In this document: piece after piece, positions 20,644 to 37,460 of the stretch
How positions within the stretch are numbered: the first letter of the stretch is position 1
How the letters are laid out: every line of letters begins with the position of its first letter
Source of the DNA: Deltaproteobacteria bacterium
Lineage (GTDB): Bacteria > Desulfobacterota > DSM-4660 > Desulfatiglandales > B25-G16
Assembly: GCA_019310725.1 (NCBI GenBank)
Contig: JAFDDT010000004.1
Location: 1 to 61,375 of the forward strand
Direction of reading: 5' to 3'
Length of the DNA: 61,375 nt
Translations under genes and position numbers: made by a program
Notes under the pieces: generated by a model
What the model was told of the DNA's origin: nothing
What the model saw: the letters and a program-made list of their open reading frames with translations, nothing else
Database searches by the model: none

Positions 20644-20655
20644 AACGAATGCCTT

Positions 20656-22011: not shown

Positions 22012-22041
22012 AACAGTTGATATCTGGTGTATGCTGTCGAT

Positions 22042-22581
22042 TTAACCAGCATCGTATAATTCTTTCAAGACATTGGCTAATTGCTCATTTGCTTCTTCAA
22101 TCTTTTTTACTGCCTGTAATATATGGCTGTAAGTTGCTGCATCTCCCGCGTTCTTAATCTTCTCTTCCCATTTCCTAAATTTCTCACTATGGTTTTTGTG
22201 ATGATCGATCCAGGAAGTGAGGATAACCCTAAGCCTACCCTTTCCATCAGTCGGGAATCTTTTCAGAATATCCTCAACCTTTGAACGAATCATATGTTCA
22301 GGCACTGCACCGAGAATCTCGTCAACCTTTTCGCCGTTATTGAAATACATCTGCATGGGGATGCTCACAATATTGAATTGCTGGGCAGTACGTGGATTCT
22401 CATCCACATTGATCTTGCAGAACTTGAAATCGTTATATTCCTCTGAAAGCTTATCATATATGGGTGAGACCATACGACAGGGACCACACCACGGGGCCCA
22501 AAAATCGACCTCTGTAGGAACATCTGATTCTAAAACCTCTTGCTCAAAATTGCTGTCTGTAATCTCTGCTACCTTCGTCAT
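22042..22581 (-). CDS. Thioredoxin with a ~70-aa helical C-terminal extension
   Basis: WCGPC active site in a thioredoxin fold. 179 aa. Confidence 0.85.
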   Translation of the reverse strand: MTKVAEITDSNFEQEVLESDVPTEVDFWAPWCGPCRMVSPIYDKLSEEYNDFKFCKINVDENPRTAQQFNIVSIPMQMYFNNGEKVDEILGAVPEHMIRSKVEDILKRFPTDGKGRLRVILTSWIDHHKNHSEKFRKWEEKIKNAGDAATYSHILQAVKKIEEANEQLANVLKELYDAG

Positions 22582-22717
22582 GCTACCTCCTTGAATTGGT
22601 ATTGTTAATAGGATATATGAAAACCATCTGATGAACTTTGGAGCCGTTCCTTCTGATAGGCGGCACCGAACCGAAGCTTTCGTGAAATCACTACCGGCTA
22701 TATTTTGAGATTCAGAT

Positions 22718-23314
22718 TCACCTTAGCTTCTTCCTAAAATTCATTACTCTTCCTGTCTCAATGTCCTTATTGTTATGTATTAGGATCAGGGAATACTTCT
22801 TTTCCAGATAGAAATTGGCACGCTCTATCTCATCTCTTGCCTCGGATTCTATATGTTTCGGCCAGACTGAAATAAATCCATTTGTTTTTGTGATCCTGTA
22901 AATTTCATCCATGAGTCTTCTTCTTTCATCCATCTCGGGGAAGTAGTAACGGTGAAGGACATCGAAGAGAAGGGCCACATCTACCGATTCTTCTGGTAGC
23001 TCGATCTTTGGCCCCCCGGATGAAGTTATTATTTCCATATTATTCAAACGGGCTGAGTCAGCCTTTTGCATCAGGTCTCTTAGGACATCTTTGTCTTTAT
23101 CCAGGGCATAAACCTTGCCTTTCCTACCAACTATTCTGGCCACTGGAATCGTGTAGGTGCCACAGCCACAACCAAAATCCAACACGGTCTGCCCTCTCCT
23201 AATGCCTATCCTCTGCAGTATCCGAACGGCTCTTTCATTTAAACCAATCCTCCCCCCTTCCTCATCCCTTCTGAGCTCTTTGCCATGTTCATGTGTTTCA
23301 GCATGTAACCGCAC
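22718..23314 (-). CDS. Class I SAM-dependent methyltransferase
   Basis: Motif I is VLDFGCGCGTYT. 198 aa. Confidence 0.75.
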   Translation of the reverse strand: MRLHAETHEHGKELRRDEEGGRIGLNERAVRILQRIGIRRGQTVLDFGCGCGTYTIPVARIVGRKGKVYALDKDKDVLRDLMQKADSARLNNMEIITSSGGPKIELPEESVDVALLFDVLHRYYFPEMDERRRLMDEIYRITKTNGFISVWPKHIESEARDEIERANFYLEKKYSLILIHNNKDIETGRVMNFRKKLR

Positions 23315-23415
23315 GGGATAATACCTTGTTAAGCTCTAGCCACGTACCACCTCTTCGCCCGCGGCGTGATGTAAACTTGATGATCCTCACATGAAATTTC
23401 GCCGGTGGGTATCTT

Positions 23416-23643
23416 TTAACTCGAGGCCAATTCCGGCACATCACCTTCGCCGAGGATATTGGTGATGTCCAATACTACCTTAGAATTTTCAAAGTCTACT
23501 TTGAGGACTTTACCTTTGATTACCTTCTCCTCGCCAAACATGTTTTCCATTCTTACGTATTGGTCATCAAGCTCTATGCCGACAATATTCTCCAGAATCG
23601 GCTCATCCATCTCCGTATTAGGGTATGCCTTTGCTAGACACAT
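23416..23643 (-). CDS. cooT: CooT-family small nickel-binding protein
   Basis: 75 aa beginning MCLAKAY (Cys2 is conserved in the family). It lies directly downstream of the CooC-like ATPase. Confidence 0.65.
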   Translation of the reverse strand: MCLAKAYPNTEMDEPILENIVGIELDDQYVRMENMFGEEKVIKGKVLKVDFENSKVVLDITNILGEGDVPELASS

Positions 23644-23714
23644 TTTAAAGACCCCCTTTCTCTCTAATTATTTCTATTCTTATCAATTATCATGGCCTAC
23701 TCCAGCCAGAGGAA

Positions 23715-24518
23715 CTAATGCCCTGGATTAGCTCTTGAAACAAGTGAATCCACCACATCTATAATCTCCTCACCTGCCTTTCCTTTGCCAAAGCTGACAC
23801 CTTCTAAACCGGATTGGAAAATCTCTGCATCATAATGGATACATCCGATCATTTCGATCCCTTTCGTGCCCAATTCATGCTCTAGCTTTGAGGCTATCTC
23901 ATCTGATGGAACTTTGTTAAGGATAGCCCAAATGTTATCGATCCCAATCCCACGAGAGAGGTTATTTACTCGTTCAGCGAGCTGGAGAGATTCAAAGGAA
24001 GGCTCAACCACAACAAGCACAGTATCTATGCTTGTCTCAACACCCCTGCCAAAGTGCTCCACTCCCGCTTCCATATCTACAATAGCTATTTCGTCTCTGG
24101 CGAGGCTAAGCTTCCTCAAAAATTCACGACTCAAAACCCCCATGGGGCAGGCGCAACCTTCCAGTGACTGGAGGATCTTCCCTATGCTCACCAGCCTTAG
24201 ATTATCCCTCTTAAGGATATTGTCGACGGGAATATCATCAACCATGATGTGTCCTTGGGTCATCACCCTCATTCCGGTCTCAGCCTCAGCAGCGGAATAG
24301 CCCCTTTTCATCTTTTCTTGGACCTTCTTTTTGCCACCGACAAGCTCCATGAGGGGTACAGGCGGCTGGTCAAAACCAAACATCCGAAAAAGGCCTGAAT
24401 TTGACTCATCTGAGTCCACAACTAGTACCCGGTAGCCCATTGTTCTCGCCTGATTGGCTAACAAGGTGACTATTGTACTCTTGCCGCTACCCCCTTTACC
24501 GCAAACGGATATCTTCAT
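23715..24518 (-). CDS. cooC: CooC/AcsF-type nickel-insertion ATPase (MinD/ParA superfamily)
   Basis: Deviant Walker A CGKGGSGKST and the CxC metal motif (EGCACPMG). 267 aa. Confidence 0.8.
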   Translation of the reverse strand: MKISVCGKGGSGKSTIVTLLANQARTMGYRVLVVDSDESNSGLFRMFGFDQPPVPLMELVGGKKKVQEKMKRGYSAAEAETGMRVMTQGHIMVDDIPVDNILKRDNLRLVSIGKILQSLEGCACPMGVLSREFLRKLSLARDEIAIVDMEAGVEHFGRGVETSIDTVLVVVEPSFESLQLAERVNNLSRGIGIDNIWAILNKVPSDEIASKLEHELGTKGIEMIGCIHYDAEIFQSGLEGVSFGKGKAGEEIIDVVDSLVSRANPGH

Positions 24519-24551
24519 TTAATCACCCCATGCAGAATGTATTTGCAACGA

Positions 24552-25082
24552 CTATGTTTTGACAGGCCCTTTTTGCCCCTTGTGGCTCTTTGCCTTCTGC
24601 GTGTGTACCTGCTTGATACTCACCCCAAGCACTTCACCTGTTCCTGCCCTATTGCTGACCGAATCCTTGCATTGTTCGCAGTACCCTTCCATATATAGTT
24701 CAGTTTTGGTGACGTTAAAGCCATAATCAAGCTGCACCTTCCTAATTATTTTCCGAATGAGGTTGCTATCAAACTCGATAACATTACCACAGCAACTGCA
24801 CACCAGATGCTGATGCCCAGCCAAGTCCTTTATCTCATAATAGCAGTTCACCTGCCCAAGCCTTCTCTCCTCGATAAGGCCCAAATCCTTGAATAGCCGC
24901 AGGGTGCGGTATACTGTAGCCAGGCTTATAGACTCATTTTTCCTGCTAGCACGCCTGTACAGTTCTTTGGCGCTGATATGTCCACCTGCTTTCTGGATTA
25001 GGCTTAAGAGTAACTTGCGCTGACCAGTTACCGGGCGACCTTCCATGTGGCTTTCTATGTTGCGAATGCTTCTCATTCTCAT
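24552..25082 (-). CDS. Fur-family metalloregulator (Fur/PerR/Nur-like) with N- and C-terminal extensions
   Basis: Winged-helix region ISLATVYRTLRLF, then HHLVCSCCGNVIEF and CEQC structural-zinc motifs. Confidence 0.8.
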   Translation of the reverse strand: MRMRSIRNIESHMEGRPVTGQRKLLLSLIQKAGGHISAKELYRRASRKNESISLATVYRTLRLFKDLGLIEERRLGQVNCYYEIKDLAGHQHLVCSCCGNVIEFDSNLIRKIIRKVQLDYGFNVTKTELYMEGYCEQCKDSVSNRAGTGEVLGVSIKQVHTQKAKSHKGQKGPVKT

Positions 25083-25144
25083 CTGTATTTACTAATACCC
25101 CCATCACATTCTGTCAACTATTTTCTTTAAATTTTTTGCATCAC

Positions 25145-25163
25145 GAAAATTTATCATTATTTA
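25145..25163. promoter_or_regulatory. Candidate Fur/PerR-type box in the divergent promoter region
   Basis: The sequence gaaaatttatcattattta contains TTATCATTAT, which resembles the AATCATTATC half of the Fur consensus. It lies between the fur-like gene and the trx-grx/groES genes. Confidence 0.3.
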
Positions 25164-25276
25164 GATTTTTAGACCTTGACAATTTCCAGAGAGATGATTA
25201 CCAAGAATTCATTTGCGGCTGTTATTTATTTCCCAGTTAGCAATAGAACATTTTATCTTAAGAGAGAAAAAACCCT

Positions 25277-25861
25277 ATGATAGAGGAAATACGCGATCAA
25301 AAACATTTATCGAGTCTTACGCAAAGTCATCCCGATTTTATGATGATCTTGTTTTATACTGATTCCTCAGAGAAGAGTAAGCAGACATTAGATGTCCTAG
25401 ATTCATTCCATCAGAAACATCCTGACGTTGCACTATTCAAGGTTAATGCTTCAAAGGTAAGAGACATACATCCAAGCTATGGGATAGATTCCGTTCCTAC
25501 CCTCTTGACACTGAAAAGCGGCAAACCAGTAGAATATGTCTTAGGTGCTCAGAGTGAGGACTACTATACCAGGCTGCTTAGTGGCACCCGACATCTTCCA
25601 AAAAAGCAGGTTAAAGGGCAGCACTTAAGAGTTGTAGTTTATACGTCTGACAGCTGCCCCTGGTGTAGTAAGGCAAAATCATACCTGAGAAAAAACAGCG
25701 TTCCGTTCAGCGAGGTTAATGTATCCCGCAATCCGAATGCAGCCCAGGATATTTTTCGAAGAAGCGGGCAGATGGGAACGCCGCAAATAGATATTAATAA
25801 TCATATTGTTGTGGGGTTTGATCAGCCAAAGATAGACAGGCTCTTAGGGATAAACGCATAA
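25277..25861 (+). CDS. Fusion of a degenerate thioredoxin-like domain (no CxxC) and a glutaredoxin-like domain (CPWC)
   Basis: The N-terminal Trx-fold-like region has SSEKS where CxxC would be. The C-terminal part reads VVVYTSDSCPWCSKAKSYL...GTPQI, which is glutaredoxin/YruB-like. Confidence 0.7.
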   Translation: MIEEIRDQKHLSSLTQSHPDFMMILFYTDSSEKSKQTLDVLDSFHQKHPDVALFKVNASKVRDIHPSYGIDSVPTLLTLKSGKPVEYVLGAQSEDYYTRLLSGTRHLPKKQVKGQHLRVVVYTSDSCPWCSKAKSYLRKNSVPFSEVNVSRNPNAAQDIFRRSGQMGTPQIDINNHIVVGFDQPKIDRLLGINA

Positions 25862-25885
25862 AACATTAGAGAAAGGGTGACACAG

Positions 25886-26170
25886 ATGAGAAAGATTCAG
25901 CCAATCAACAACAACCTATTAATTAAGCTGGATGAGGTCAAGGAAGATAAAACTGCTGGAGGTATAATTATACCAGATACTGCCAAGGAAAAGCCTTCAG
26001 AGGGAGAGGTGGTGGCCCTACCACCGGATTCTGATATCGGCGTATCAGTAAGCGATAGGGTTATCTACAAGAGCTTTTCAGGCACAGAGATTGCATTTGA
26101 GGGGGAAAAATATCTCCTTGTTCCATCTGATGATATTCTGGCCAAATACGTCGAGGTTGATGCCATTTAA
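25886..26170 (+). CDS. groES: Co-chaperonin GroES (Cpn10) with no adjacent groEL
   Basis: MRKIQPINNNLLIKLDE...TAGGIIIPDTAKEKPSEGEVVA is a classic Cpn10 mobile-loop region. The ATG at 25886 is preferred over the GTG at 25877. Confidence 0.85.
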   Translation: MRKIQPINNNLLIKLDEVKEDKTAGGIIIPDTAKEKPSEGEVVALPPDSDIGVSVSDRVIYKSFSGTEIAFEGEKYLLVPSDDILAKYVEVDAI

Positions 26171-26423: not shown

Positions 26424-27368
26424 ATGAGAGCCTTCGGACCAGTTCCATCAAGGCGATTGGGTCAAAGTTTGGGGATAAACAACATACCCCCCAAGGTTTG
26501 CACTTACTCCTGTGTCTACTGCCAAATTGGGAAAACACAACACTTGAACTGTGAGCGAGGGGCATTTTTTGAGCCAGATGATTTGGCACGCGAGGTCACA
26601 GAAAAGGTTAACGAGCTCAGAAAAAGGCAGACAAAGATAGATTATTTGAGTTTTGTTCCTGATGGGGAACCAACCCTGGATATTAACTTAGGTGAGCATG
26701 CTGAACGTATCAAGCCACTCAACATAAAGATCGCGGTCATCACGAACGGCTCTCTCATCACCATCGAGGATGTGAGAGCAGACCTGCAAAAAGCAGATTT
26801 GGTTTCATTAAAAGTCGATGCTACCAGCAGAAAAGCCTGGCTCAAAACTGATAGGCCACACAAGTCACTTGATCTCAAGGCAATACTGCAGGGGATGCTG
26901 GAATTCAGGGCAAACTTTGGCGGCGAACTGATTACCGAGACCATGCTTCTCAAAGGAATGAATGATAGTCCTGAAGAGATAAAAGGGATTACCGAGTTTC
27001 TGACCACACTCAAACCGCAAAAATCCTACATCTCTATCCCTACCAGACCAACAGCAGTTAAAGGGGTACTCCCTACCAGTGATCAGGCACTTAATTTGGC
27101 CTACCAGATCTTTAAGGAGACGCTACCCCATGTAGAATATTTAATCGGCAATGAGGGAAATGAATTCGGCTTCAGCGGTAACGTTGAAGAAGACCTGCTG
27201 AGCATCACCTCGGTTCACCCCATGAGAGAAGATGCTGTCAAGCAATACCTGAAAAAGGCAGGAGCAGATTGGGATGTAATAACCGACCTGGCAAGAAAGG
27301 GCCTATTAATAGAAGTGGAGTATCAAGGGAAAAAGTTTTACCTGAGGAAACTACCGGGGAAGGACTAG
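26424..27368 (+). CDS. Radical SAM protein (unassigned subfamily)
   Basis: GPVPSRRLGQSLGIN...CTYSCVYCQ (CxxxCxxC) at the N-terminus. 314 aa. Confidence 0.7.
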   Translation: MRAFGPVPSRRLGQSLGINNIPPKVCTYSCVYCQIGKTQHLNCERGAFFEPDDLAREVTEKVNELRKRQTKIDYLSFVPDGEPTLDINLGEHAERIKPLNIKIAVITNGSLITIEDVRADLQKADLVSLKVDATSRKAWLKTDRPHKSLDLKAILQGMLEFRANFGGELITETMLLKGMNDSPEEIKGITEFLTTLKPQKSYISIPTRPTAVKGVLPTSDQALNLAYQIFKETLPHVEYLIGNEGNEFGFSGNVEEDLLSITSVHPMREDAVKQYLKKAGADWDVITDLARKGLLIEVEYQGKKFYLRKLPGKD

Positions 27369-28666: not shown

Positions 28667-29038
28667 TTATGCGCGACCTCCCTCCTTAGGGATATAGCAA
28701 TTGATAGATCTCACTTTATAAACGAGACAAGCCTCACAGGTTCCGTCAGGGCGGATATGATCACTAATTTTATTTTTGTAGAATTCCCAGCAGAAGGTTG
28801 GTAAATGGGCGGCATCAGGTAGGGCTTCTAAGTCAACACCCACTTCGGCAGGGTCAGGAAAGGGGATGTCGTTACTCTTCAGAAAGGAGGCCACATCCTT
28901 TGCTAGCACGCGCCAATGACAGGAGGTGCCCACGCGAAAACCCTTAATCTCTCCTCTTTCCAGCCAACGCTTGACGGTTTCCCGAGAATGGTGGCATACC
29001 AACGCGATATCGGACGTGGTAAATGCCTTTTTTTCCAT
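28667..29038 (-). CDS. Excisionase/MerR-type HTH DNA-binding protein with Cys-rich C-terminal domain
   Basis: The N-terminal part TTSDIALVCHHSRETVKRWLERGEIKGFRVG..HWRV resembles the HTH_17/excisionase family. The C-terminal half has CWEF...DGTCEACLVYKVRSINC. Confidence 0.6.
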   Translation of the reverse strand: MEKKAFTTSDIALVCHHSRETVKRWLERGEIKGFRVGTSCHWRVLAKDVASFLKSNDIPFPDPAEVGVDLEALPDAAHLPTFCWEFYKNKISDHIRPDGTCEACLVYKVRSINCYIPKEGGRA

Positions 29039-29069
29039 ATTTCTTTGTTTTCTTTGTTTTGTTTAGTAA

Positions 29070-29097
29070 GTTTTATCTTGTGGAATCAGTTTGTCAA
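29070..29097 (-). promoter_or_regulatory. Candidate sigma-70 promoter for the HTH gene
   Basis: On the minus strand: TTGACA (29097-29092), a 16-nt spacer, then TAAAAC (29075-29070). It is preceded by an A-run. Confidence 0.35.
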
Positions 29098-29307
29098 GTT
29101 TTTTTGTAGGCGAGAAGGTCTGAAAGGAGCGATACACTATTTGAATGGAAGTAATGCCGGAAAGGCAGAAGTTGAGGATATGGATGCCATGAGTGGCCTT
29201 CAATCGGCTGGGTATTTACATTGGAATGGAGAATACTACGGAAGGCTTGACTGCTCTGAAATCGGGAGCATCCTTTCTGGATTCAGTAAAGCAGAGAGAA
29301 CCCGCTC

Positions 29308-29673
29308 TCAACCGTGATGATGGCCTCCAAGGTGATCGTGCTGGCAGGGTTCTACTCCGGTGATCTCTCCTTTTAAATAGGCCTTGAGAACATTCCCAGC
29401 ATTCCCAGTTGCTCCACTTACAACTTCGATCCCTAAACCAGTAAACATATCAATTGCCCTTGGTCCCATACCACCAGCAATCATGACATTCACACCCTGT
29501 TCATTGATGAATTGAGGGACCATTCCAGGGGCATGGTTATTGTAATAGGGGTTATCAACACTCTTAGTCTTTTCTATTTCATGTCCCTCAACCTCTACAA
29601 TCAGATAGCAAGGACAACGGCCAAAGTGCTGGCTGATCTGACCATTGAGTCCCTTATTATCCTCGGTTGCCAG
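29308..29673 (-). CDS. NifX/NifB-C-like (dinitrogenase FeMo-cofactor-binding fold) small protein with His-rich tail; non-ATG start
   Basis: The frame is open from 29688 and reads (T)RRIALATEDNKGLNGQISQHFGRCPCYLIVEVE...HAPGMVPQF...IAGGMGPRA...CQHDHLGGHHHG. The only ATG (29523) would remove half of the domain. CTG at 29673 has a GAAGGA RBS, and ATA at 29679 is an alternative start. Confidence 0.6.
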   Translation of the reverse strand: MATEDNKGLNGQISQHFGRCPCYLIVEVEGHEIEKTKSVDNPYYNNHAPGMVPQFINEQGVNVMIAGGMGPRAIDMFTGLGIEVVSGATGNAGNVLKAYLKGEITGVEPCQHDHLGGHHHG

Positions 29674-29832
29674 TGCTATCCTTCTCGTTTATTCACACCT
29701 CTTTCACTAGTTTTACTCGCCTTCGCCAGAATACCCTGCAGCTTGTCGGAGCAAAGCGGAGATCCCGCTTGCGGGGCTGCGGGGAGCTTCATCTTTTGTG
29801 CGTTTTGCTGGATACTCATCTCTGACCTCTAT

Positions 29833-30714
29833 TCATGACTGATCTGTATTCAGGTCAAATCGAGCAGCCAGCCTCTCCCATATGTCCACAACCGCCCGGG
29901 CGGCCTGGGATGCCCCATCATATTCGATGACAGTCTGCTTCTGGACCATGGCCTTAGTGAATGACGGATCAAAGGGGATCCTTCCCATAATAGGTAAACC
30001 CCTATCCCTGGCATACTGTTCTATTACCACAGTCATATCCGGATTAAGGTCAAATTTGTTTATGCAAACGCTGGCTGGAATCCCAAAATGGTTGGCTAAC
30101 TCAACAACCCTGTCCATATCGTGCTGTCCAGAGAGGGTGGGTTCAGTTACAATAAGTACCGCACTAGCACCGGCTATTGATGCAATAACAGGACAGGCCA
30201 GACCAGGGGGCCCATCAGTGAGAATAAGGCTCAAGTCCCTCTCCTGTGCGAGCTCTTTGGCCTGCTTGCGGGTTAGCGTTACCAGTTTTCCGGAGTTGTC
30301 CTCAGCAATACCGAGTCTGGCATGTACCATGGGCCCAGCGCGTGTCTCTGATACAAACAATTCACCACAAGTCTTGATGGGAAAATCTATCGCATCTTCC
30401 GGACAGAAATAGACACAGACCCCACATCCTTCACAGTCAATAGGATCTACCTTATACTCCGAACTAATGGCATCGAAGCGACACAGCTCCCTGCACAGGC
30501 CGCATTCAGTACACTTATCCAGGTTTATTTCAGCCCTATGCCCTTCTTGAAAGTCTTGCCTCTCTTTTATGTCCGGTTCCAAGATCAGATAGAGATCAGC
30601 AGCATCTACATCGGCATCACACAGAACCTTATCCTTGGCTAGAGATGCAAAGGCGGCCAGCAAACTGGTCTTGCCGGTTCCACCCTTGCCGCTTATTACA
30701 ATAAGTTCTTTCAT
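29833..30714 (-). CDS. MinD-superfamily P-loop ATPase with inserted 2x[4Fe-4S] ferredoxin domain (COG1149-like)
   Basis: Walker A SGKGGTGKTS, then CTECGLCRELC and CEGCGVCVYFCP inserted between the ATPase segments. Confidence 0.85.
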   Translation of the reverse strand: MKELIVISGKGGTGKTSLLAAFASLAKDKVLCDADVDAADLYLILEPDIKERQDFQEGHRAEINLDKCTECGLCRELCRFDAISSEYKVDPIDCEGCGVCVYFCPEDAIDFPIKTCGELFVSETRAGPMVHARLGIAEDNSGKLVTLTRKQAKELAQERDLSLILTDGPPGLACPVIASIAGASAVLIVTEPTLSGQHDMDRVVELANHFGIPASVCINKFDLNPDMTVVIEQYARDRGLPIMGRIPFDPSFTKAMVQKQTVIEYDGASQAARAVVDIWERLAARFDLNTDQS

Positions 30715-30820
30715 AGCAACTTGGTTCTATTGGTTTGATTTATTTGGTTGCCAAAAAGCCCACCAAATAGGGTCATGGCAACAAGACTAACAGGGCAAGG
30801 CACGCATCTCCTCCTTCTTT

Positions 30821-31663
30821 TTACTCCTGTCTTACAAGATCGGTTATTTTTTCATAGAGGTGAATAAATTTCGCTTTCCAGTCAGGCAACTCCTCTACCA
30901 GGAGTTTACCCCTTGAATAGGTCTCTGCGATCTGGCGGTCAAATGGGATCTCCATAAGGATGGGGATGTCTTCCTGCTCTGCATATTCTGTAACCTTGGT
31001 ATCGCCCAGATCTGAGCGATTTATGATAATGCCATGAGGGATGTTGAGGATCTTAACCATGCCAACGGCGAGCTTCAGATCATTCAGACCAAATGGGGTA
31101 GGTTCCGTTACCAGGATCACAAAATCGGTGCCCTTTACTGAACTGATCACTGGGCATGACGTGCCCGGAGGGGCATCAATTATGTTTACCTTGTCCGGTT
31201 GAACAGCAGCCCTGACCCTTTCAATCACGGGAACCGCCATCACCTGGCCAACAAAGAGGCGGCCATGGGAAAATTCGAGACTATCCCTGTGACCACCTTC
31301 AAAGACCCCCATTTCTCTGTCTATTTCAGTAATTGCATCTTCGGGGCACACCTCCACACATCCGCCACAACTGTGGCACAACTCGGGAAAGGTTAAGACA
31401 GATTTGCCCACAACAACAATGGCCTGGAACTGACAGATATCCTGACATCGCCCACACAGGGTACATTTATCCATGTCTACCTGGGGGACTTTTAGGCCCA
31501 CCCTTTCAGTGTATGTAACCTCCGGCTGGATAAAGATATGGTCATTTGGTTCCTCTACGTCACAATCCAGAAGGTTTACCCCGGGTCCCAGGGCCACTGC
31601 CAGGTTGGTAGCTATTGTTGTTTTTCCAGTTCCACCCTTTCCGCTTGCTATGCTTATGATCAT
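30821..31663 (-). CDS. MinD-superfamily P-loop ATPase with inserted 2x[4Fe-4S] ferredoxin domain (second paralog)
   Basis: SGKGGTGKTT, CTLCGRCQDIC and CHSCGGCVEVCP. The ATG at 31663 has an AGGAAG RBS (the ORF track GTG is at 31699). Confidence 0.85.
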   Translation of the reverse strand: MIISIASGKGGTGKTTIATNLAVALGPGVNLLDCDVEEPNDHIFIQPEVTYTERVGLKVPQVDMDKCTLCGRCQDICQFQAIVVVGKSVLTFPELCHSCGGCVEVCPEDAITEIDREMGVFEGGHRDSLEFSHGRLFVGQVMAVPVIERVRAAVQPDKVNIIDAPPGTSCPVISSVKGTDFVILVTEPTPFGLNDLKLAVGMVKILNIPHGIIINRSDLGDTKVTEYAEQEDIPILMEIPFDRQIAETYSRGKLLVEELPDWKAKFIHLYEKITDLVRQE

Positions 31664-31816
31664 TGTCGTCTTCCTATTTGGCAGGAGTTCAACTTTCACC
31701 TGGCAGATTTCAGCAAAAACAGAGGGACTCGTGTTGTTATCGAATCCCTCAATTTTAAGTGTTTAAAGTCAGCTTAAGTGCCTACTGCATACTCCTTACT
31801 GCCTAGTAGATAATCG

Positions 31817-32653
31817 TCACTTCGTAAGATTAGCGACCTCATCTACAATCTTGGTGAAATTTACTGTGTAAGGCAGATCTTTTTGCTCCATCCAGTTTAC
31901 TGTTCCATTATCACCCTCAAGGACAATATCCGGCTCCAGAGGGAGGCTTCCCAGGAGTTTGAGCCCCGCCTTTTTGGCAGTGATAATACCACCATTTGTC
32001 TTAAAGAGATCAATGGTCTTGCCACAATGAGGACATTTCAAGCCACTTCCATTTTCTATCAAACCAAGGATTTGCATATTGACCTGATGGCAAAAATTTA
32101 TTGATTTTCGCACGTCAGCAAGAGAGATCTCCTGGGGTGTAGTTACAATAATTGCCTTGGTGTCCGGTATGATTTGGGCTATCGTCAAGGGTTCATCCCC
32201 TGTGCCAGGGGGACAGTCAATAATGAGATAGTCCGAATTACTCCAGGCAATGTCATTGATAAACTGCTTAATCACCCCGATTTTCAAGGGGCCCCTCCAG
32301 ATTGTTGCAGTGTCCTTATCTCCAAGCAGCGCCTCTATCGACATCACCTGCATGTTCGGCAGATAGCTTAAGGGAATCCCCTTTTTGAGCCCGGGAGAGG
32401 AAACTATTTCCCCCTTGAGTCCCAAGAGCCGGGGGATACTCGGACCGTGTAAGTCTACGTCCATCAGTCCTACCTGGAAGCCTTTCCTGGCCAGCCCAAC
32501 CGAAAGATAGGCGGCGATAGTACTTTTGCCAACACCGCCTTTTCCACTCATTACTAATATCTTGTTTTTAAACCCTTCAAGTTTTTCTCTTATCTCTTTA
32601 TCCTGGGCCTCCATCATGGCCTTTTTGCGTTTCATCTCTTCGTCTTGTTGCAT
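31817..32653 (-). CDS. Mrp/NBP35/ApbC-family Fe-S cluster carrier ATPase
   Basis: MSGKGGVGKST Walker A, DCPPGTGD, and the CPHCG motif. 278 aa. Confidence 0.85.
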   Translation of the reverse strand: MQQDEEMKRKKAMMEAQDKEIREKLEGFKNKILVMSGKGGVGKSTIAAYLSVGLARKGFQVGLMDVDLHGPSIPRLLGLKGEIVSSPGLKKGIPLSYLPNMQVMSIEALLGDKDTATIWRGPLKIGVIKQFINDIAWSNSDYLIIDCPPGTGDEPLTIAQIIPDTKAIIVTTPQEISLADVRKSINFCHQVNMQILGLIENGSGLKCPHCGKTIDLFKTNGGIITAKKAGLKLLGSLPLEPDIVLEGDNGTVNWMEQKDLPYTVNFTKIVDEVANLTK

Positions 32654-32938
32654 TATGCTATCTTTTCCTCCTCATTGATCTTAAAAACCATATAATATCA
32701 AACCTCTTTCAATAATCATTATATCCACCGTTGCATACAGGCCACTTCCTCAGTGCTGCCCTCGCCCATGAGCAAATAGCTCTTGAGCTATTCGGCGTCG
32801 AGCTCATGACCGAGAGGCTCACTGCCAAAAGGCTCGGCCCGCATGGGGTGAGCATAATAGGGATCATGGTCACCACTCCAAGCGTTCAGCTCTGTGGTGA
32901 ATATCTCTCCTGAACCTCTATACCCTCCCCGGCAATTG

Positions 32939-33127
32939 TCAGTCAACTTCAGTAACAGTGATCGCCTCCTGTTCACAGACCTCGATACAGCTCTCACATC
33001 CAATGCACTCCTCTGCATTGACAGGAACTGACTTTTCATCCTGCATTTCAAAGACATCTACAGGACAGACATCTACGCACTCCTCGCAGCCTATACATTT
33101 TTCTTTATCAACCTCTACCTTGTACAT
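32939..33127 (-). CDS. Small 2x[4Fe-4S] ferredoxin (paralog of 712-903)
   Basis: MYKVEVDKEKCIGCEECVDVCP...CIGCESCIEVC. By my count 54 of 62 aligned residues are identical to the 712-903 product. The ATG at 33127 has an RBS. Confidence 0.9.
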   Translation of the reverse strand: MYKVEVDKEKCIGCEECVDVCPVDVFEMQDEKSVPVNAEECIGCESCIEVCEQEAITVTEVD

Positions 33128-33239
33128 ATCCTTACCCCTTTCAAGTATGGTGCACAATAACGAGTAACAGATAATCCTTTCCTTAGAAATGTCAAGGTCT
33201 TTTTATCAGACCAACTGATCCCTCGTACGTAGCAGGCAG

Positions 33240-33584
33240 CTACTTGGCCGCTTTCTCCAATTCTTTGATCCTTGCATCGATCTGGTCCATCTGCTGCTTT
33301 AGCATTTGGGCCTGGTCTCTTAAGTAGTTTATCTCCTGCTCTGGGGCCATAGGAGCGCCAAATGGTGGTATCCCTGGCCCTCCAAATCCTCCCTGTGGCG
33401 GGTAATTAGGTTGACCATAGGGCGACATCTCTGACGTTCCATATCCTCCTGGAGGTGGGTAATAGGGCATCTGTGGCATACCTCCGCAAGGATTCATCCA
33501 GCCACCTGGCATAGGATAGCCCATTCCCATGGGCGGTCCCCAGGGAGGAGGCCATCCTCCATATGGATAAGATTGGTAATGCAT
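33240..33584 (-). CDS. Low-complexity Pro/Gly/Met/Tyr-rich protein with C-terminal coiled coil (DUF5320-like C-terminus)
   Basis: AAAGGAGG RBS. The N-terminal ~80 aa are almost only P, G, M, Y and W. The C-terminus reads EQEINYLRDQAQMLKQQMDQIDARIKELEK. Confidence 0.7.
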   Translation of the reverse strand: MHYQSYPYGGWPPPWGPPMGMGYPMPGGWMNPCGGMPQMPYYPPPGGYGTSEMSPYGQPNYPPQGGFGGPGIPPFGAPMAPEQEINYLRDQAQMLKQQMDQIDARIKELEKAAK

Positions 33585-33610
33585 ATCATCCTCCTTTCTA
33601 CATCAATTAG

Positions 33611-33815
33611 GACGCAGACCCGCGTGCCCGCCATCCATAGTATTACGGCCGACGGGCCAGACGGCGGGCAGATTTTCGCCGATGCCCGCAGATATTTATT
33701 CTATTGGTTCTTTATATTCAAAATCCTGGTAGCCTGCCCGCTAATCCCGACTGGTCGCGATAGCAATGGCAGACGGGTCTGCGTTCATGCGCTTCCAAAA
33801 TGGAAATCCCTATGC
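33611..33815. repeat. Structured ~200-nt interspersed element (copy 1), closed by an inverted repeat
   Basis: gacgcagacccg (33611-33622) pairs with cgggtctgcgt (33774-33784). About 155 nt (33664-33815) align at roughly 80-85% by eye with 47543-47697. It sits inside an operon between two small genes. Confidence 0.7.
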
Positions 33816-33829
33816 TATTAAGTTATTTT

Positions 33830-34072
33830 TTACGAATAAGGATAACCATACGGGTTTCCCGTCCACATACCATAAGGAGCATAGGCCGATTGATAGCTAT
33901 ATCCTCCATAAGGGGCATAAGGGGTAAACCCTGGGGCCCTATAGGCCCAGCCTCTGGGTAGGCCTCCCCTTCCCAAGCCAACATAAGGCCACGGGGGAGA
34001 ATATCCCCTAAATCCGAAGCCTCTTCCAAAACCTCTGCCCCTTCCCATTCCAAATCCTCTGCCGTAAGGCAT
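33830..34072 (-). CDS. RG/GY-rich low-complexity mini-protein (80 aa)
   Basis: AGGGGG RBS. The sequence is MPYGRGFGMGRGRGFGRGFGFRGY...YAPYGGYSYQSAYAPYG. G, Y, P and R together make up about two thirds of residues by my count. Confidence 0.65.
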   Translation of the reverse strand: MPYGRGFGMGRGRGFGRGFGFRGYSPPWPYVGLGRGGLPRGWAYRAPGFTPYAPYGGYSYQSAYAPYGMWTGNPYGYPYS

Positions 34073-34161
34073 AATTATACCCCCTTTGCACCTTAAACCG
34101 TGACTCTAACGGAGCAGTCCTGGCAGATACTAAGACTGCTGCAAAGATCTAATTATTTAGC

Positions 34162-34425
34162 TTACCACCATCCTCTGCCTCTGCCAAATCCTCTGCCACC
34201 GCCAAATCCTCTGCCAAATCCATAGGCACCATATGGATAGCCTGCATATGGAGTAGTGTATCCGGCTCCATAAGGTGGTACGTAGCCCATACCGTAAGGG
34301 CTGCCATATGGATAGGCTCCCATAAAGGGTGGTCTTGCTCCTGCATAATAGGGGTTACACCATCCCCTGCCTCCTCCGGTCATTGGGCCCATTCCTCTGG
34401 GTCCGGTTCCATCGAATCCTGGCAT
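34162..34425 (-). CDS. DUF5320-type N-terminal motif followed by GY/RG-rich low-complexity tail (87 aa)
   Basis: An AGGAGG RBS lies 8 nt before the ATG at 34425. The protein starts MPGFDGTGPRGMGPMTGGGRGWC, continues YPYGSPYGMGYVPPYGAGY, and ends GFGRGFGGGRGFGRGRGWW. Confidence 0.7.
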   Translation of the reverse strand: MPGFDGTGPRGMGPMTGGGRGWCNPYYAGARPPFMGAYPYGSPYGMGYVPPYGAGYTTPYAGYPYGAYGFGRGFGGGRGFGRGRGWW

Positions 34426-34450
34426 CTCATTCACCTCCTTTCTGCTTTTC

Positions 34451-34858
34451 TTAAGGAAAGTGGATCCCTCGCCGCCTTCTCCCTCTACCTGTGCCGGGTC
34501 CTGGTGGGCCTTTGCCCCACTGGCCAGGACGACCAGGCATCATAAATTGAACATCGAACAAATTGCCCTGCAAAAATGCGTGCAGTACATCCTCCACCTG
34601 GCCTGATATCCAGGCGATCAGATTGATCCCAGCAGTTGTGACCATGTTCGCAAGGGGTTTTGAAATAGCTCCACAGATAAGTGTATCAACTCCCAAACCG
34701 GTAAGTCTCATAGTTTTGCTGGGAGGAAAATATTCACTGATATCCGTCTCAAATCGTGAGTATTCACCTTCTTCTCCCACCTCAACCACTACCAGTCGCG
34801 ACGCTGCATCAAAAACGGGCGACACCCTCCCATTCCATGTTGGTATGGCAATTTTCAT
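34451..34858 (-). CDS. NifX/NifB-C-like small protein (divergent subfamily) with Gly/Arg-rich tail
   Basis: MKIAIPTWNGRVSPVFDAA...LICGAIS... fold pattern. The tail is GRPGQWGKGPPGPGTGRGRRRRG. Confidence 0.65.
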   Translation of the reverse strand: MKIAIPTWNGRVSPVFDAASRLVVVEVGEEGEYSRFETDISEYFPPSKTMRLTGLGVDTLICGAISKPLANMVTTAGINLIAWISGQVEDVLHAFLQGNLFDVQFMMPGRPGQWGKGPPGPGTGRGRRRRGIHFP

Positions 34859-34891
34859 TCTTGCCTTTATGTCTTTTGGTAATGGAAGAAT

Positions 34892-35104
34892 CTATTTTTC
34901 CAGATCTTTTATCCGAGACAGAATCGAATTAAGCTGATCCCGGAGAGCCTTTGCCTCTTGCTTGAGCGCTCCAATCTCTTGATCAGGAGATGCGGGAGGA
35001 GCCGTCTGATTTGGGCCATATCCTGCTTGCATACCCATGCCACGGCCCATACCCATGCCACGGCCCATGCCCATGCCACGGCCCATGCCCATGCCACGGC
35101 CCAT
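34892..35104 (-). CDS. (GRGMGM)n repeat protein with DUF5320-like C-terminal coiled coil (70 aa)
   Basis: The ATG at 35104 is preceded by AAGGGAG. The protein is MGRGMGMGRGMGMGRGMGMGRGMGMQAGYGPNQ...EIGALKQEAKALRDQLNSILSRIKDLEK. It overlaps the 3' part of the upstream gene in another frame. Confidence 0.6.
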   Translation of the reverse strand: MGRGMGMGRGMGMGRGMGMGRGMGMQAGYGPNQTAPPASPDQEIGALKQEAKALRDQLNSILSRIKDLEK

Positions 35105-35429
35105 TGGGTGATAATTCTCCCTTCTTATATCTATCAATCGCCTCTCTAATGGAACCACTAACGCCGACAATCACATCGACACCGGCTGCATTTAGGGTTC
35201 TGCTGGCATTGGGGCCAACATTTCCGGTTATAACCACAGTTGCCCCTGTGGAAGCGATAAACTGGCCTGACTGAATACCTGCTCCCCCGCCGAGAGACAT
35301 ACTCTCGTTCTCAATGGCCTCAAAGGTCATGTCATCTGGATTAACGATTAAAAAATACGCGCATCTACCAAATCTTGGATCTATTTCGGCGTCAAGATCC
35401 GTTCCCGTTGAACTAAACGCTATTTTCAT
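34983..35429 (-). CDS. NifX/NifB-C-like small protein; C-terminal limit uncertain (frame continues into a GPWHGH repeat)
   Basis: MKIAFSSTGTDLDAEIDPRFGRCAYFLIV...GGGAGIQ...ITGNVGPNA...IREAIDRYKKGEL is the complete domain. The same frame then reads PNGPWHGHGPWHGHGPWHGYGPWHGY through the tandem repeat to a stop at 34983. Confidence 0.7.
   Translation of the reverse strand: MKIAFSSTGTDLDAEIDPRFGRCAYFLIVNPDDMTFEAIENESMSLGGGAGIQSGQFIASTGATVVITGNVGPNASRTLNAAGVDVIVGVSGSIREAIDRYKKGELSPNGPWHGHGPWHGHGPWHGYGPWHGYASRIWPKSDGSSRIS
35034..35105. repeat. Tandem repeat, 18 nt x 4 (cccatgccacggcccatN)
   Basis: The units are 35034-35051, 35052-35069, 35070-35087 and 35088-35105. They differ only at the last base. 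Confidence 0.95.
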
Positions 35430-35464
35430 AAGCTATTTCTCCTTCCTTTTCTAAAATTATCCCT

Positions 35465-35480
35465 AGCAGCTTCTGTGCCA
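35465..35480 (-). promoter_or_regulatory. Sigma-54 (-24/-12) promoter
   Basis: The minus strand reads TGGCACagaagCTGCT against the consensus TGGCAC-N5-TTGCW, with the correct GG/GC spacing. It ends 35 nt upstream of the ATG at 35429 and is followed by an AAGGAAGGAG RBS. Confidence 0.65.
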
Positions 35481-35587
35481 TGTTTGTGCTATCCTCATTG
35501 AATAGGATAACTCATTAATATTTCTGATGATATTCAGTTGGAATAAAAAAATATATGAAATACATCATACACAGAATGTATTATTAT

Positions 35588-35625
35588 TGGAACATATTTT
35601 ATGCAATGTTCCAGTATTGGAACAC
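35588..35625. promoter_or_regulatory. Candidate enhancer-binding-protein site (UAS): TGGAACAT-N10-ATGTTCCA plus a third half-site
   Basis: A perfect 8-bp inverted repeat (35588-35595 / 35606-35613) and TGGAACAC at 35618-35625. The sites lie about 110-160 bp upstream of the sigma-54 promoter, with AT-rich DNA in between. Confidence 0.45.
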
Positions 35626-35657: not shown

Positions 35658-37460
35658 TTATGGTGGTTTCCTGCGAAAGTAATCAAAAACATTTTTTGCT
35701 ACTAGTTGGGCAATCCCTGGAACTTGCATTAACTCTTTGAGCCCTGCCTGGGCTATAGCGTCGATATCTCCAAAAAATCCAAGCAATAACCTCTTTCTCT
35801 TTGGCCCAATCCCCGGAATTTTATCCAGCTCGGACATAGTTAACTTTTTCTTCCTTCTTTTTCGGTAATAACTGACAGCCCTCCGGTGGGTCTCATCTCT
35901 TATACGGATAAAAAGAGACAGGACTGGGTGATTGCGCGCAAGGTTAAGGGGGTTTTTCCTGTTTGGAAGATATATTTTGTCCAAAGCCCCCTGTCTTCCT
36001 CGATCAGCTTTCGCAATGGAGATAACATCAGGTGGCTTCTCAAGGCCAATAGCACCGAGCGTTTTTAAGGCTACCGCCAGATGACCCTTTCCACCATCTA
36101 TTACAAAAAGGTCTGGCGGTTTGCCCTGTTTCAGTCTTCTTCTCATTCCCTCTGCAATCATGGCATAATCATCTATCCCCCCCACCTCTTTTATCCGGTA
36201 GTTACGATAGCCGGATTTCTGCGGCAGCCCTCTGACAAAGGTGACTATGGAGGCTACGGCAAGATCACCTTTGAGATTAGATACATCTATCGCCTCTATG
36301 TGCACTGGCTTTCTTCTTAAGTGCAGTAACGATTTTGCTTCCTCAAGAAGAGCAGACTCATGGGTTTTTTGGCGTCTTAACAGTGCATTGTCAGCGTTCA
36401 CCGCAGCCATGTGGGCAAGCCTTCTCTTATGTCCCTTGGAGGGAACCGAAATAGATACCTTTCTCCCAGCTATCCCTGTCAACCATTCAGAGATCAGTTT
36501 TCTATCATCTATTGCATCTGATAGGATTATGTCAGGAGGGAAAAATTGTTTCTCTCTGTAATATTGTTTGAGGAATGCCTCCAGTATTTCACTTGAATAC
36601 TCCCATGCTCCACGTATGGAATAACTTCTGCTTCCAACCATAACACCGCCCCGCACCAAGAGAATCACCACCTCTGCTTCTTTACCAGAGTAAGATAGTC
36701 CGATAATGTCTTGATCCCTCATCTTGCTGGAAACTACTATTTGCTTTTCCACGGTTTTTTCTATAGCCCTGATTTGATCTCTCACCATGGCAGCCTTTTC
36801 AAAATTGAGCTCCCTCGAGGCATTATCCATCGCCTTCTTCAGCTTCGAGATTAATTCCTTGTTCCGTCCTTCCAAAAATAGCCTTACCTGATCAACTAAC
36901 TCCTGATAATCCTCTCCGCTGACATCCATACAACAGGGTGCCAGACACCTGCCGAGCTGATAATTCAGACAAGGCCTCGACCGCTTGGGGATTTCCCTGG
37001 TAGTACATTTTCTCAAAGGAAAGATAGGGCCTATCAAGTGCAGAGTGGAGCGTACCTCTGACACAGACGGAAAGGGGCCGAAATAGAGAGCCCCATCATT
37101 TCTCATCCTTCGTACAATAGCCAAGCGAGGATACCTCGTATTGATATCCAGCTTAACGAAGGGATAATTGGCATCATCCTTGAGATCTACGTTATACCTA
37201 GGCCGATATTTTTTTATGAGATTCCCTTCAAGTATCAAGGCCTCAGTTTCCGTACCAGTTATGATATGATCTATCCTTTCGGTATTCCTGATAATGTACG
37301 CTAACTTACCGGACTGATTACTGCCGTGGGTGAAATAGGAATTGATGCGTTTCTGTAGGTTTTTGGCCTTGCCAATATAGATTATCTTTCCAGACTTATC
37401 CTTAAAGAGATAAACTCCTGGGTTTTGAGGGAATTCTTTGATGCTATCACCACTCAGCAT
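35658..37460 (-). CDS. uvrC: Excinuclease ABC subunit C
   Basis: GIY-YIG N-terminus (GVYLFKDKSGKIIYIGKAKNL), a UVR domain, and a C-terminal (HhH)2. 600 aa. Confidence 0.95.
   Translation of the reverse strand: MLSGDSIKEFPQNPGVYLFKDKSGKIIYIGKAKNLQKRINSYFTHGSNQSGKLAYIIRNTERIDHIITGTETEALILEGNLIKKYRPRYNVDLKDDANYPFVKLDINTRYPRLAIVRRMRNDGALYFGPFPSVSEVRSTLHLIGPIFPLRKCTTREIPKRSRPCLNYQLGRCLAPCCMDVSGEDYQELVDQVRLFLEGRNKELISKLKKAMDNASRELNFEKAAMVRDQIRAIEKTVEKQIVVSSKMRDQDIIGLSYSGKEAEVVILLVRGGVMVGSRSYSIRGAWEYSSEILEAFLKQYYREKQFFPPDIILSDAIDDRKLISEWLTGIAGRKVSISVPSKGHKRRLAHMAAVNADNALLRRQKTHESALLEEAKSLLHLRRKPVHIEAIDVSNLKGDLAVASIVTFVRGLPQKSGYRNYRIKEVGGIDDYAMIAEGMRRRLKQGKPPDLFVIDGGKGHLAVALKTLGAIGLEKPPDVISIAKADRGRQGALDKIYLPNRKNPLNLARNHPVLSLFIRIRDETHRRAVSYYRKRRKKKLTMSELDKIPGIGPKRKRLLLGFFGDIDAIAQAGLKELMQVPGIAQLVAKNVFDYFRRKPP

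Follow-up and report, generated by a model that had tools for sequence, protein, structure and literature searches.

What is the purpose of a gene array that combines three NifX-fold proteins, two MinD-type ATPases with ferredoxin domains inserted in them (MinD-Fd A and B), an Mrp/NBP35 ATPase, a 2x[4Fe-4S] ferredoxin and four small DUF5320-type proteins? Such an array is found at positions 28667-35625 of a 61,375-nt stretch (hereafter the window) of contig JAFDDT010000004.1, from the Deltaproteobacteria bacterium assembly GCA_019310725.1. Judged by its gene content it is an orp (ORange Protein complex) cluster, a system that is known from Desulfovibrio, and we find it rather likely that the products form an anaerobe-specific set for handling metal clusters that is turned on at low redox potential.

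An earlier note, made from the sequence of the window, had described the gene order and the domain classes, and both were recovered in Pfam profile searches (PF02579, PF17253, PF10609, CbiA/MinD with Fer4, and HTH_17). It had also held that neighbourhoods of this kind have no assigned function. This part has to be given up, as the system is the described Desulfovibrio orp/ORP cluster with its sigma-54, OrpR and integration host factor (IHF) regulation.

Relation to the orp cluster of Desulfovibrio

In Desulfovibrio vulgaris Hildenborough (DvH) the orp genes are arranged in two divergent operons, DVU2103-2105 and DVU2107-2109, that depend on sigma-54 RNA polymerase, the activator OrpR (DVU2106) and IHF. 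Five orp products form the "ORange Protein" complex, which is specific to anaerobes and has been pulled down. Two ferredoxin motifs are present in the MinD-like ATPases Orp3 and Orp4, and Orp8 is the orange protein itself, a NifX-fold protein with a non-covalent, anionic Mo-Cu-S cluster (PMC3897727, PMC6345978, PMC8359166). Orp9, or MrpORP, joins an Mrp/NBP35 part with a NifX-like "Di-Nase" domain that binds a [3Fe-4S] cluster, and it transfers Fe-S clusters to Orp3 and Orp4 in vitro (PMC6345978). OrpR senses the redox state through a [4Fe-4S] cluster in its PAS domain (PMC8359166). A role of the complex in cell division has been proposed and is unproven (PMC3897727, PMC8359166, PMC6345978).

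The assignment of the window array to the orp family is based on four features: the match of NifX1 to a known ORP structure, a split MrpORP, a MinD-Fd pair of the Orp3/Orp4 type and a promoter of the sigma-54 type. The positions of all features are given in Table 1. NifX1 matches the ORP of D. gigas (PDB 2WFB, 1.5e-19), while the best PDB match is MTH1175 (1.1e-19).

MrpORP is represented in NCBIfam by the equivalog NF041136, with a cut-off of 450 bits. The window Mrp, the counterpart of the P-loop half of MrpORP/Orp9, covers positions 4-251 of this model with 360 bits; the match of NifX3 spans positions 273-364 with 81.6 bits. Each score is below the cut-off, and because the two proteins match separate parts of the model we conclude that the MrpORP domains are here carried by two genes, about 2 kb apart; fused Mrp-DiNase forms of 400-490 amino acids (aa) are found in the related loci L009-L015. 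Apart from the split into two polypeptides (360 and 82 bits against 450), the likeness to MrpORP (PMC6345978) includes both Mrp motifs listed in Table 1 and, in NifX3, the HFGRC...C.H-type signature of the Di-Nase domain. NifX3 also matches the PDB entries 1T3V, 1O13 and 2YX6 (about 1e-23). An exact-protein look-up with the window Mrp gave no match.

The two MinD-Fd ATPases are paralogues. Each has two CxxCxxCxxxCP motifs inserted after the P-loop, and in the alignment of the family there are eight invariant cysteines and a near-invariant one seven residues past the Walker-B aspartate (DAPPGTSCP / DGPPGLACP). In NifH, CooC and HypB the interface metal ligands are found in the region just past Walker B. 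With these and other SIMIBI ATPases (Mrp/Nbp35-Cfd1) the MinD-Fd proteins share a deviant Walker A, obligate pairing (here of A with B) and the cysteine after Walker B; unlike them they contain a 2x[4Fe-4S] domain after the P-loop and have no known client enzyme. The family is large, 7174 clusters at 50% identity (E<1e-3), its top matches are tandem A-B fusions of about 600 aa, and all close homologues of MinD-Fd A are 280 aa long. Similarity to NifH/BchX/CfbC-type proteins is faint, and MinD models were matched far below their cut-offs. No structure of this architecture was found in PDB, where only partial matches exist, and in the literature searched we found no paper on COG1149.

The promoter that the earlier note had proposed holds up at the level of sequence. 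The element reads TGGCACN5CTGCT and is the single match to TGGCACN5YTGCW in the 61-kb window, where 0.11 would be expected by chance. It is conserved in L001, L008 and L009, in each case 5' of the same gene. Among 85 loci, 23 have a -24/-12 match 10-300 nt 5' of a cluster gene (background 0.112 per kb), typically before a NifX2-type gene that comes after the activator. Further upstream there is a candidate enhancer, or upstream activating sequence (UAS), and comparable dyads are found at the same place in L008 (ATGTTCCAAAATTAGAACAT) and L001 (TGTTACAAAATTGGAAC). The spacer is AT-rich in the window and contains no exact WATCARNNNNTTR that could be taken as an IHF site; the spacer of L008 contains TATCAACGTGTTA.

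In 13 related loci an adjoining activator has an N-terminal PAS domain with the pattern C-x8-C-x3-C, and most of these proteins also have a GAFTDA motif. In OrpR the cysteine triad is C52/C61/C65 (PMC8359166), and GAFTDA, which is unusual, is listed for DVU2106 (PMC4641369). On the basis of this cysteine spacing, and in most cases of GAFTDA, we assign these activators as OrpR orthologues.

In summary, the array resembles the DvH orp genes in its ORP-type NifX, its two MinD proteins with 2x[4Fe-4S] inserts, its Mrp/NBP35 and Di-Nase domains, its sigma-54 promoter, the OrpR-type activators (PAS cysteine triad, GAFTDA) that are seen beside related loci, and its restriction to anaerobes. It differs in that the genes form one co-directional array instead of two divergent operons around the regulator, in that there is no adjoining OrpR and the upstream dyad is another one, and in the split of MrpORP. 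Further, it adds a ferredoxin and four DUF5320-type genes, and its ORP domain was ancestrally fused to a (GRGMGM)n coiled-coil tail.

Table 1. Position of the operon and of the features discussed in the text, in window coordinates.
Feature	Position	Strand	Remarks
Operon array	28667-35625	minus, all genes	downstream of uvrC (35658-37460)
Candidate enhancer (UAS) palindrome TGTTCCAatacTGGAACA	35607-35624	minus	perfect 7-4-7 dyad, ~130-145 nt 5' of -24
Sigma-54 -24/-12 element TGGCACagaagCTGCT	35465-35480	minus	TGGCACN5YTGCW match, ~35 nt 5' of first ATG
NifX1, ORP/Orp8-type	34983-35429	minus	PF02579 6e-24; domain at 35107-35429
DUF5320a, (GRGMGM)4 and C-terminal coiled coil, 70 aa	34892-35104 (ORF 34892-35170)	minus	PF17253 9.4e-11
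NifX2, divergent NifX-fold	34451-34858	minus	PF02579 1.5e-7; polybasic G/R tail GTGRGRRRRG
DUF5320b, N-motif MPGFDGTGPRGMGPMTGGGRGWC	34162-34425 (ORF to 34434)	minus	PF17253 2.5e-8; strong Shine-Dalgarno
RG/GY-rich protein (RGGY), 80 aa, motif FGFRGYSPPWPYVGLGRGGLPRG	33830-34072	minus	no Pfam match; pI 10.1
Structured intergenic repeat element, ~200 nt	33600-33829	minus	inserted within the operon
DUF5320c, P/G/M/Y-rich with C-terminal coiled coil	33240-33584	minus	PF17253 1.1e-7; pI 5.1
2x[4Fe-4S] ferredoxin, 62 aa	32939-33127 (ORF to 33157)	minus	Fer4_7 1.3e-18
Mrp/NBP35 Fe-S carrier ATPase	31817-32653	minus	PF10609 (Mrp/NUBPL) 1.7e-88; GKGGVGKS and CPHC motifs
MinD-Fd A (Orp4-like), 280 aa	30821-31663 (ORF to 31699)	minus	Pfam CbiA/MinD and 2 Fer4; deviant Walker A
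MinD-Fd B (Orp3-like), paralogue of A	29833-30714	minus	Pfam CbiA/MinD and 2 Fer4 inserted
NifX3, Cys/His-rich NifX-fold, Di-Nase half of MrpORP	29308-29688	minus	PF02579 2.8e-21
HTH_17 protein, Cys-rich C-terminus	28667-29038	minus	PF12728 1.7e-8
Fifth DUF5320-type gene, 71 aa	21276-21491	minus	N-motif MPRGDGTGPAGRGPGTGRG, GR-rich stretch, C-terminal Zn-ribbon (CxCPxCG...CPxCG)

Related loci in bacteria and archaea

Species-representative genomes were scanned with the alignment of the MinD-Fd family, which gave 80 loci, and the open reading frames (ORFs) of each locus were classified by phmmer against the window proteins. The loci belong to Desulfobacterota, Planctomycetota, Chloroflexota, Omnitrophota, Acidobacteriota and Clostridia, and to five archaeal metagenome-assembled genomes from Bathyarchaeia, Methanocellaceae, Thermoplasmatota and Thorarchaeota. 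The expectation that this neighbourhood recurs in anaerobes is thereby borne out, for bacteria as well as archaea.

Gene content was counted in the 46 loci with enough flanking sequence, the window among them, as well as L001 and L008, which are closely related to it. MinD-Fd B follows A in all 46 and at least one NifX-fold gene is present in every locus, with two or more in 39. The MinD-Fd pair and the NifX carriers are the invariant core of the cluster. Mrp is found in 25 loci, often as a Mrp-DiNase fusion of 400-490 aa. Free DUF5320-like genes are also found in 25, and fusions of NifX with a GMGRG-type linker, whether or not a coiled coil is included, in 14; counting both kinds, 31 of the 46 loci have a DUF5320 module. 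A sigma-54 activator is within reach in 15 loci, and a small ferredoxin gene is found in 7.

The families that recur next to the cluster were counted in 81 neighbourhoods. NifU_N is the commonest (23/81) and is always co-directional. It is followed by Zn_ribbon_8 (18), the metallo-beta-lactamase fold (16), ARMT1/DUF89 (16), a DUF134 regulator (16, in lineages that have no activator), a radical-SAM family (13, with the window copy at 26424-27368), methyltransferases (12), the DUF364/DUF4213 "heavy-metal chelation" family (10) and Fur (8). Nitrogenase, hydrogenase and carbon monoxide dehydrogenase (CODH) structural genes, MinC/MinE and Fts are not recurrent in the 81 neighbourhoods.

A known maturation pathway encoded nearby would be a simple explanation for such a set of carriers. 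It fails here, because structural genes for nitrogenase, hydrogenase and CODH do not recur, and the surroundings of the cluster encode no known target of maturation. For the window the earlier note had stated that genes for nitrogenase, hydrogenase, Isc and Suf are missing, and indeed none was found among the window ORFs scanned. Nor is there any nifB, nifEN or nifDK among these ORFs or among the recurrent neighbour families, so that, unlike the nitrogenase cofactor carriers NifX, NafY and NifB, the window cluster is not accompanied by nif genes. It also differs from MinCDE, as neither MinC nor MinE is found in the cluster or in the recurrent flanking families. CooC/CooT, Fur and thioredoxins are present in the window, 5-9 kb from the cluster.

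DUF5320-type proteins, lesions and surroundings

The low-complexity proteins were tested for the DUF5320 hallmark, an N-terminal GTGP.G.GP.TGRG.G.C and/or a C-terminal coiled coil, above the Pfam gathering threshold. DUF5320a, DUF5320b and DUF5320c score 43.2, 35.4 and 33.4 bits against PF17253, where the cut-off is 27. In DUF5320b the N-motif is followed by a G/Y/P-rich stretch and then (GRGFG)n; it has no coiled coil and its pI is 9.7. The motif of RGGY is conserved in the Dehalococcoidia loci L039, L042, L060, L064 and L084, there together with a DUF5320-type coiled coil.

That the small genes are real, as had been claimed from their Shine-Dalgarno sequences, is supported by their conservation. 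The ratio of nonsynonymous to synonymous change (pN/pS) is 0.20-0.22 for DUF5320b, which is conserved in L008 and L001, 0.14 for RGGY when compared with L008, and 0.17-0.39 for DUF5320c when compared with L006, L001 and L008. These values, 0.14-0.39 in all, indicate purifying selection. In addition, of 54 small proteins picked by motif beside MinD-Fd genes in other taxa, 49 match PF17253. The Shine-Dalgarno sequences themselves are strong at most small genes; however, they are weak or absent at MinD-Fd B, the HTH gene and the internal start of DUF5320a, so the claim that every small gene has a strong one was too broad.

Several subtypes can be distinguished. The full-length form has the N-motif MPxGDGTGPxGxGPMTGRxxGxC, a GR/GY-rich middle and a coiled coil. 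Another form, to which DUF5320b belongs, has the N-motif and (GRGFG)n without a coiled coil, and a third combines the N-motif with a Zn-ribbon. The RG/GY subtype has the conserved motif FGFRGSSPPWPYVGRGRGGLPRG, to which a coiled coil is attached in Dehalococcoidia. The window example of the Zn-ribbon form is the fifth DUF5320-type gene of Table 1, 8 kb away from the cluster. This family is co-directional in 10 of the 81 orp-like loci, and in L025 its gene is directly 5' of MinD-Fd A, where orp5 is placed in DvH. At a guess, it corresponds to Orp5 of DvH, a "small Cys-rich Fe-S protein".

Similar sequences are also found as tails on NifX proteins. Among the ORP-type NifX1 proteins 36 of 79 have a tail of at least 20 aa, and 23 of these 36 tails contain GMGRG-type repeats. 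The tails consist of 22% G, 8% R and 6.6% M, and this Gly/Arg/Met-rich type is specific to the ORP-type NifX1 subgroup. In L013, L023, L025, L033 and L059 there are larger fusions, in which an ORP-type NifX with GMGRG linker and coiled coil is followed by a second NifX domain of Di-Nase type (TPPPHEPG), a ferredoxin or a Zn-ribbon. Such shuffling of domains suggests that these modules belong to one functional unit.

In the window the fusion has been broken. The last ~40 codons of the NifX1 ORF are the GRGMGM repeat read out of frame, and the (GRGMGM)n ORF overlaps it by ~120 nt in a different frame. In L008 (185 aa), a syntenic relative with 93% identical MinD-Fd, and in L001 (168 aa), the NifX domain, the G/M/R linker and the DUF5320 coiled coil are one ORF, and NifX1-DUF5320 fusions are also seen in many phyla. 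An alignment of the DNA with L008 explains the change of frame, as the window has a deletion of ~19 nt and an 18-nt repeat expansion. The split leaves an internal ATG at 35104. What had been read as two separate genes is thus the split version of one gene that is fused in the relatives. A programmed +1 frameshift at CCC-A-ATG, which would join NifX1 and DUF5320a, was considered; besides the fused relatives nothing supports it.

The other two NifX genes also have peculiarities. In related loci the first gene behind the OrpR-like activator and the sigma-54 promoter is of the NifX2 subtype, and from this position one may guess that it is the Orp7 of DvH. NifX3 has no ATG, GTG or TTG start. Instead, there is an ACG at 29688-29686, preceded by an intact Shine-Dalgarno sequence (GAAAGAGGTG), where L004, L006 and L008 have ATG (MRRIALATED...). 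This could be a true change of the start codon, a start of low efficiency or a sequencing error.

Two parts of the array are window-specific insertions. In L004, L006 and L008 neither the helix-turn-helix (HTH) gene nor the adjoining alpha/beta-hydrolase is present between NifX3 and the radical-SAM gene, and none of the other surveyed loci yielded a homologue of the HTH protein. By this comparison the HTH gene is an insertion specific to the window, outside the conserved cluster. It had been listed as a member of the operon with its own promoter, but a sigma-70 scan found no promoter there. In general the scans for intrinsic terminators and sigma-70 promoters in the region gave nothing above chance, and an internal promoter is not supported.

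The second insertion, the repeat element, is missing from the operon site in L001 and L008. The earlier note was right in regarding it as real: its core of ~155 nt (about 33668-33821) recurs at 47548-47699 with 83% identity. The fold of the element has z = -3.4, and the copy in the orp cluster has terminal inverted arms, GCAGACCCG...CGGGTCTGC. No Rfam family matched the element or any other part of the region. The second copy is situated between trpS and a CCA-adding/polyA-polymerase gene, and it is kept with its flanks in a metagenome contig (L089, 1667-1818). Pattern scans of metagenomes gave this one contig only, a homologue of the 47.5-kb copy, and no sign of a high-copy mobile element. 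Just 5' of the second copy, at 47728-47821, there are two tandem 47-nt units that are 94% identical.

Some further observations should be mentioned. An ORF of 47 aa at 29676-29819 is not conserved, being largely deleted in L004, and was for this reason not accepted as a gene. The ferredoxin gene has a second copy at about 712-913 on the minus strand, with 77% DNA identity to 32943-33137. The region 19415-26170 is a metal and redox block with an ArsP_2 permease, small coiled-coil ORFs, the DUF5320-Zn-ribbon gene, a thioredoxin, a methyltransferase, a Grx/Trx fusion and GroES. It includes a protein with a PF04060 FeS domain and, at its C-terminus, a DUF5320-like coiled coil (21592-22011), CooT (23416-23643, PF10133 3.8e-13), a CooC/MinD-like ATPase (23715-24518) and Fur (24552-25082). 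In L008 and L004 the part from Fur to ArsP_2 is directly 3' of the orp cluster. The window also encodes RACo (9968-11905, minus), a reductive activator of the corrinoid Fe-S protein, and a DUF1638 protein (16106-16750, minus); together with CooC and CooT these point to an anaerobe of the Wood-Ljungdahl type. Finally, a repeat of ~38 nt (GCAGGGTAACGTCAAAGTCCAGGGTATGGGTGTCTTTT) is found at 9770-9807, 43819-43848, 44227-44270, 51749-51783 and 59650-59687, in both orientations and in some cases before T-runs. It has the look of an intergenic element, REP-like or terminator-like.

Possible function and alternative explanations

According to the Desulfovibrio literature, an OrpR-type activator with a [4Fe-4S] PAS domain would turn on the operon only under reducing conditions, the CXXC motif of Mrp would be the site where a bridging [4Fe-4S] cluster is assembled, Mrp would pass clusters on to the MinD-Fd ATPases, and these ATPases and Mrp would be in a complex with the NifX-fold proteins. 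From here on the mechanism is our own proposal. MinD-Fd A and B may form a nucleotide-switched heterodimer that loads, reduces or releases a labile, non-covalent anionic metal-sulfide (Fe-S, possibly Mo/Cu-S) on the NifX carriers. The DUF5320 proteins could serve in trans as detachable Gly/Arg/Met/aromatic tails, which in the relatives are fused to the ORP-type domain; with their disordered parts they would bind the anionic cargo or shield it, and through their coiled coils they would make the carriers oligomerise. In view of the Mo-Cu-S cluster of ORP, the Met-rich repeats carried by the ORP-type domain might also be suited to soft metals such as Cu(I). Overall, the function would be the trafficking or storage of metal-sulfide clusters. 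The earlier note had arrived at metallocluster assembly or trafficking, and this general idea fits with the in vitro transfer of Fe-S from MrpORP to Orp3 and Orp4 (PMC6345978); its view that the machine is one of unassigned identity is not supported. Its further idea, that the low-complexity subunits may act as a condensate-like scaffold or as metal-buffering tails, is a conjecture to which the NifX-DUF5320 fusions and the IssA precedent lend indirect support.

The part given to the DUF5320 proteins is modelled on IssA of Pyrococcus furiosus. This is a NifX-family protein with a 70-residue Pro/Gly/aromatic/cationic tail and a pI of 10.7, proposed to wrap anionic thioferrate, and its relatives in the uncharacterised "IssX" clade have Gly-rich tails (PMC5524996). 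The likeness is the association of a NifX-fold domain with disordered sequence of high pI that is rich in Gly, Arg, aromatic residues and Pro. In contrast to IssA, the tails of the window are mostly separate genes, or else Met-rich (GRGMGM)n linkers with a coiled coil at their end, and they are embedded with MinD-Fd and Mrp ATPases. IssA carries its cationic, aromatic and Gly-rich tail on the chain of the NifX-fold domain; in comparison, the tail of NifX2 is short and polybasic, and NifX1 has a G/R/M tail only in the relatives, where it is fused, whereas in the window it is split. DUF5320b and RGGY resemble IssA in composition, being basic with much G, Y, P, R, W and F, but are separate genes.

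It should be said that several facts weigh against the reading of the locus as a redox-controlled metallocluster-handling set, or against parts of it. About one third of the loci have no DUF5320 module and the DvH complex has been described without a known DUF5320 protein, so these modules are accessory. DUF5320c is acidic (pI 5.1, two Arg, rich in P, G, M and Y), and therefore not all members can be explained by polycation electrostatics alone. The putative cargo role of DUF5320 is drawn by analogy from the IssA precedent and the NifX-DUF5320 fusions. The physiological cofactor of ORP is unsettled. On the side of regulation, the candidate UAS dyad differs from the OrpR site of DvH (GGGCGYRTTTTGCGCCC), and no ORF resembling a sigma-54 activator (enhancer-binding protein) and no GAFTGA-like motif was found in any frame of the 61-kb window; the activator of this operon is encoded outside the window.

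The frame break between NifX1 and DUF5320a, the ACG start and the repeat insertion are possible lesions, which also speaks against a fully working cluster. Taken together with the lack of a neighbouring activator, they could mean that the window cluster is decaying or only partly functional, under relaxed selection. Independent lesions in the relatives point in the same direction: in L008 the ferredoxin gene carries a 10-nt duplication and MinD-Fd B lacks ~33 aa, in L004 part of the ferredoxin insert of MinD-Fd B is deleted, and in L001 only a 56-aa remnant of Mrp is left, its place being taken by an ARMT1/DUF89 gene, and RGGY contains a stop codon. The lesions in these three loci may be due to relaxed selection in the clade or may be assembly artefacts, and in metagenome assemblies errors are to be suspected above all within repeats. 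Decay is also difficult to reconcile with the low pN/pS of the small genes and with the conserved promoter and upstream dyad. Further, every large gene of the window is intact, and the NifX1/DUF5320a split has left two open frames, each with an ATG. We therefore hold decay to be quite improbable.

Two other explanations give the ATPases a different task. If Orp3, Orp4 and Mrp position the septum or the chromosome in anaerobes that have no MinCDE, the Fe-S clusters would be mere redox sensors. This would agree with the morphological defects on OrpR inactivation, the polar localisation of MrpORP and the proposed C-terminal amphipathic helix of Orp3/4 (PMC6345978, PMC4672049, PMC8359166), of which the first two also count against a role in cluster handling, and the ATPases do score, weakly, against MinD models. 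However, the division role is called "still unclear" by its own authors (PMC8359166). What recurs in the 81 neighbourhoods is NifU_N, Fur, DUF364, radical SAM and NifX, not MinC, MinE or Fts. The universal partners (46/46) are NifX-fold cluster carriers, and the cluster is also present in archaea, which have other division machinery. On this evidence a division device is unlikely. The A/B pair could also work as NifH and other ATP-dependent reductases do, in ATP-driven electron transfer at low potential, and together with the ferredoxin reduce, or reductively couple, a cluster or substrate on the NifX-fold proteins. Two [4Fe-4S] motifs in each ATPase, a separate ferredoxin, the faint NifH/BchX/CfbC-type similarities and the near-invariant cysteine seven residues past the Walker-B aspartate are all in favour of this. 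But a partner like NifDK, BchNB or CfbD is found neither in the window nor among the recurrent neighbours, and the small ferredoxin is present in only 7/46 loci, which makes such a function, in our opinion, very unlikely.

Among these explanations we prefer the handling of metal clusters by an orp-type set, through the mechanism proposed above, and we hold it at somewhat better than even confidence. It can be taken one step further. The IssA-like tails of DUF5320, the ORP-type NifX and the MinD-Fd pair might together be a redox-regulated, ATP-controlled store and dispenser of metal-sulfide (thioferrate, Mo/Cu thiometallates), maybe a nanoparticle or condensate crosslinked by coiled coils, that is widespread in anaerobic bacteria and archaea. 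This we regard as a speculative and rather doubtful extension.

The cluster itself was already known. In the literature searched DUF5320 turned up only in two papers on unrelated subjects, and the systematic association of DUF5320 with ORP, their fusion, and the NifU_N/Fur/DUF364 context appear to be new; gene-neighbourhood databases, however, would show these associations as well.

The ORP complex has been known for more than ten years without an established function, and the handling of Fe-S and metal-sulfides in anaerobes is poorly understood. The survey gives DUF5320 its first functional context. The invariant core, the NifU neighbour and the tails together lead to a testable hypothesis, in which the tails bind the cargo and its loading and release are gated by ATP. 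If the store and dispenser model were true, the orange protein complex would be a storage organelle for Fe-S or metal-sulfide and not a device for cell division.

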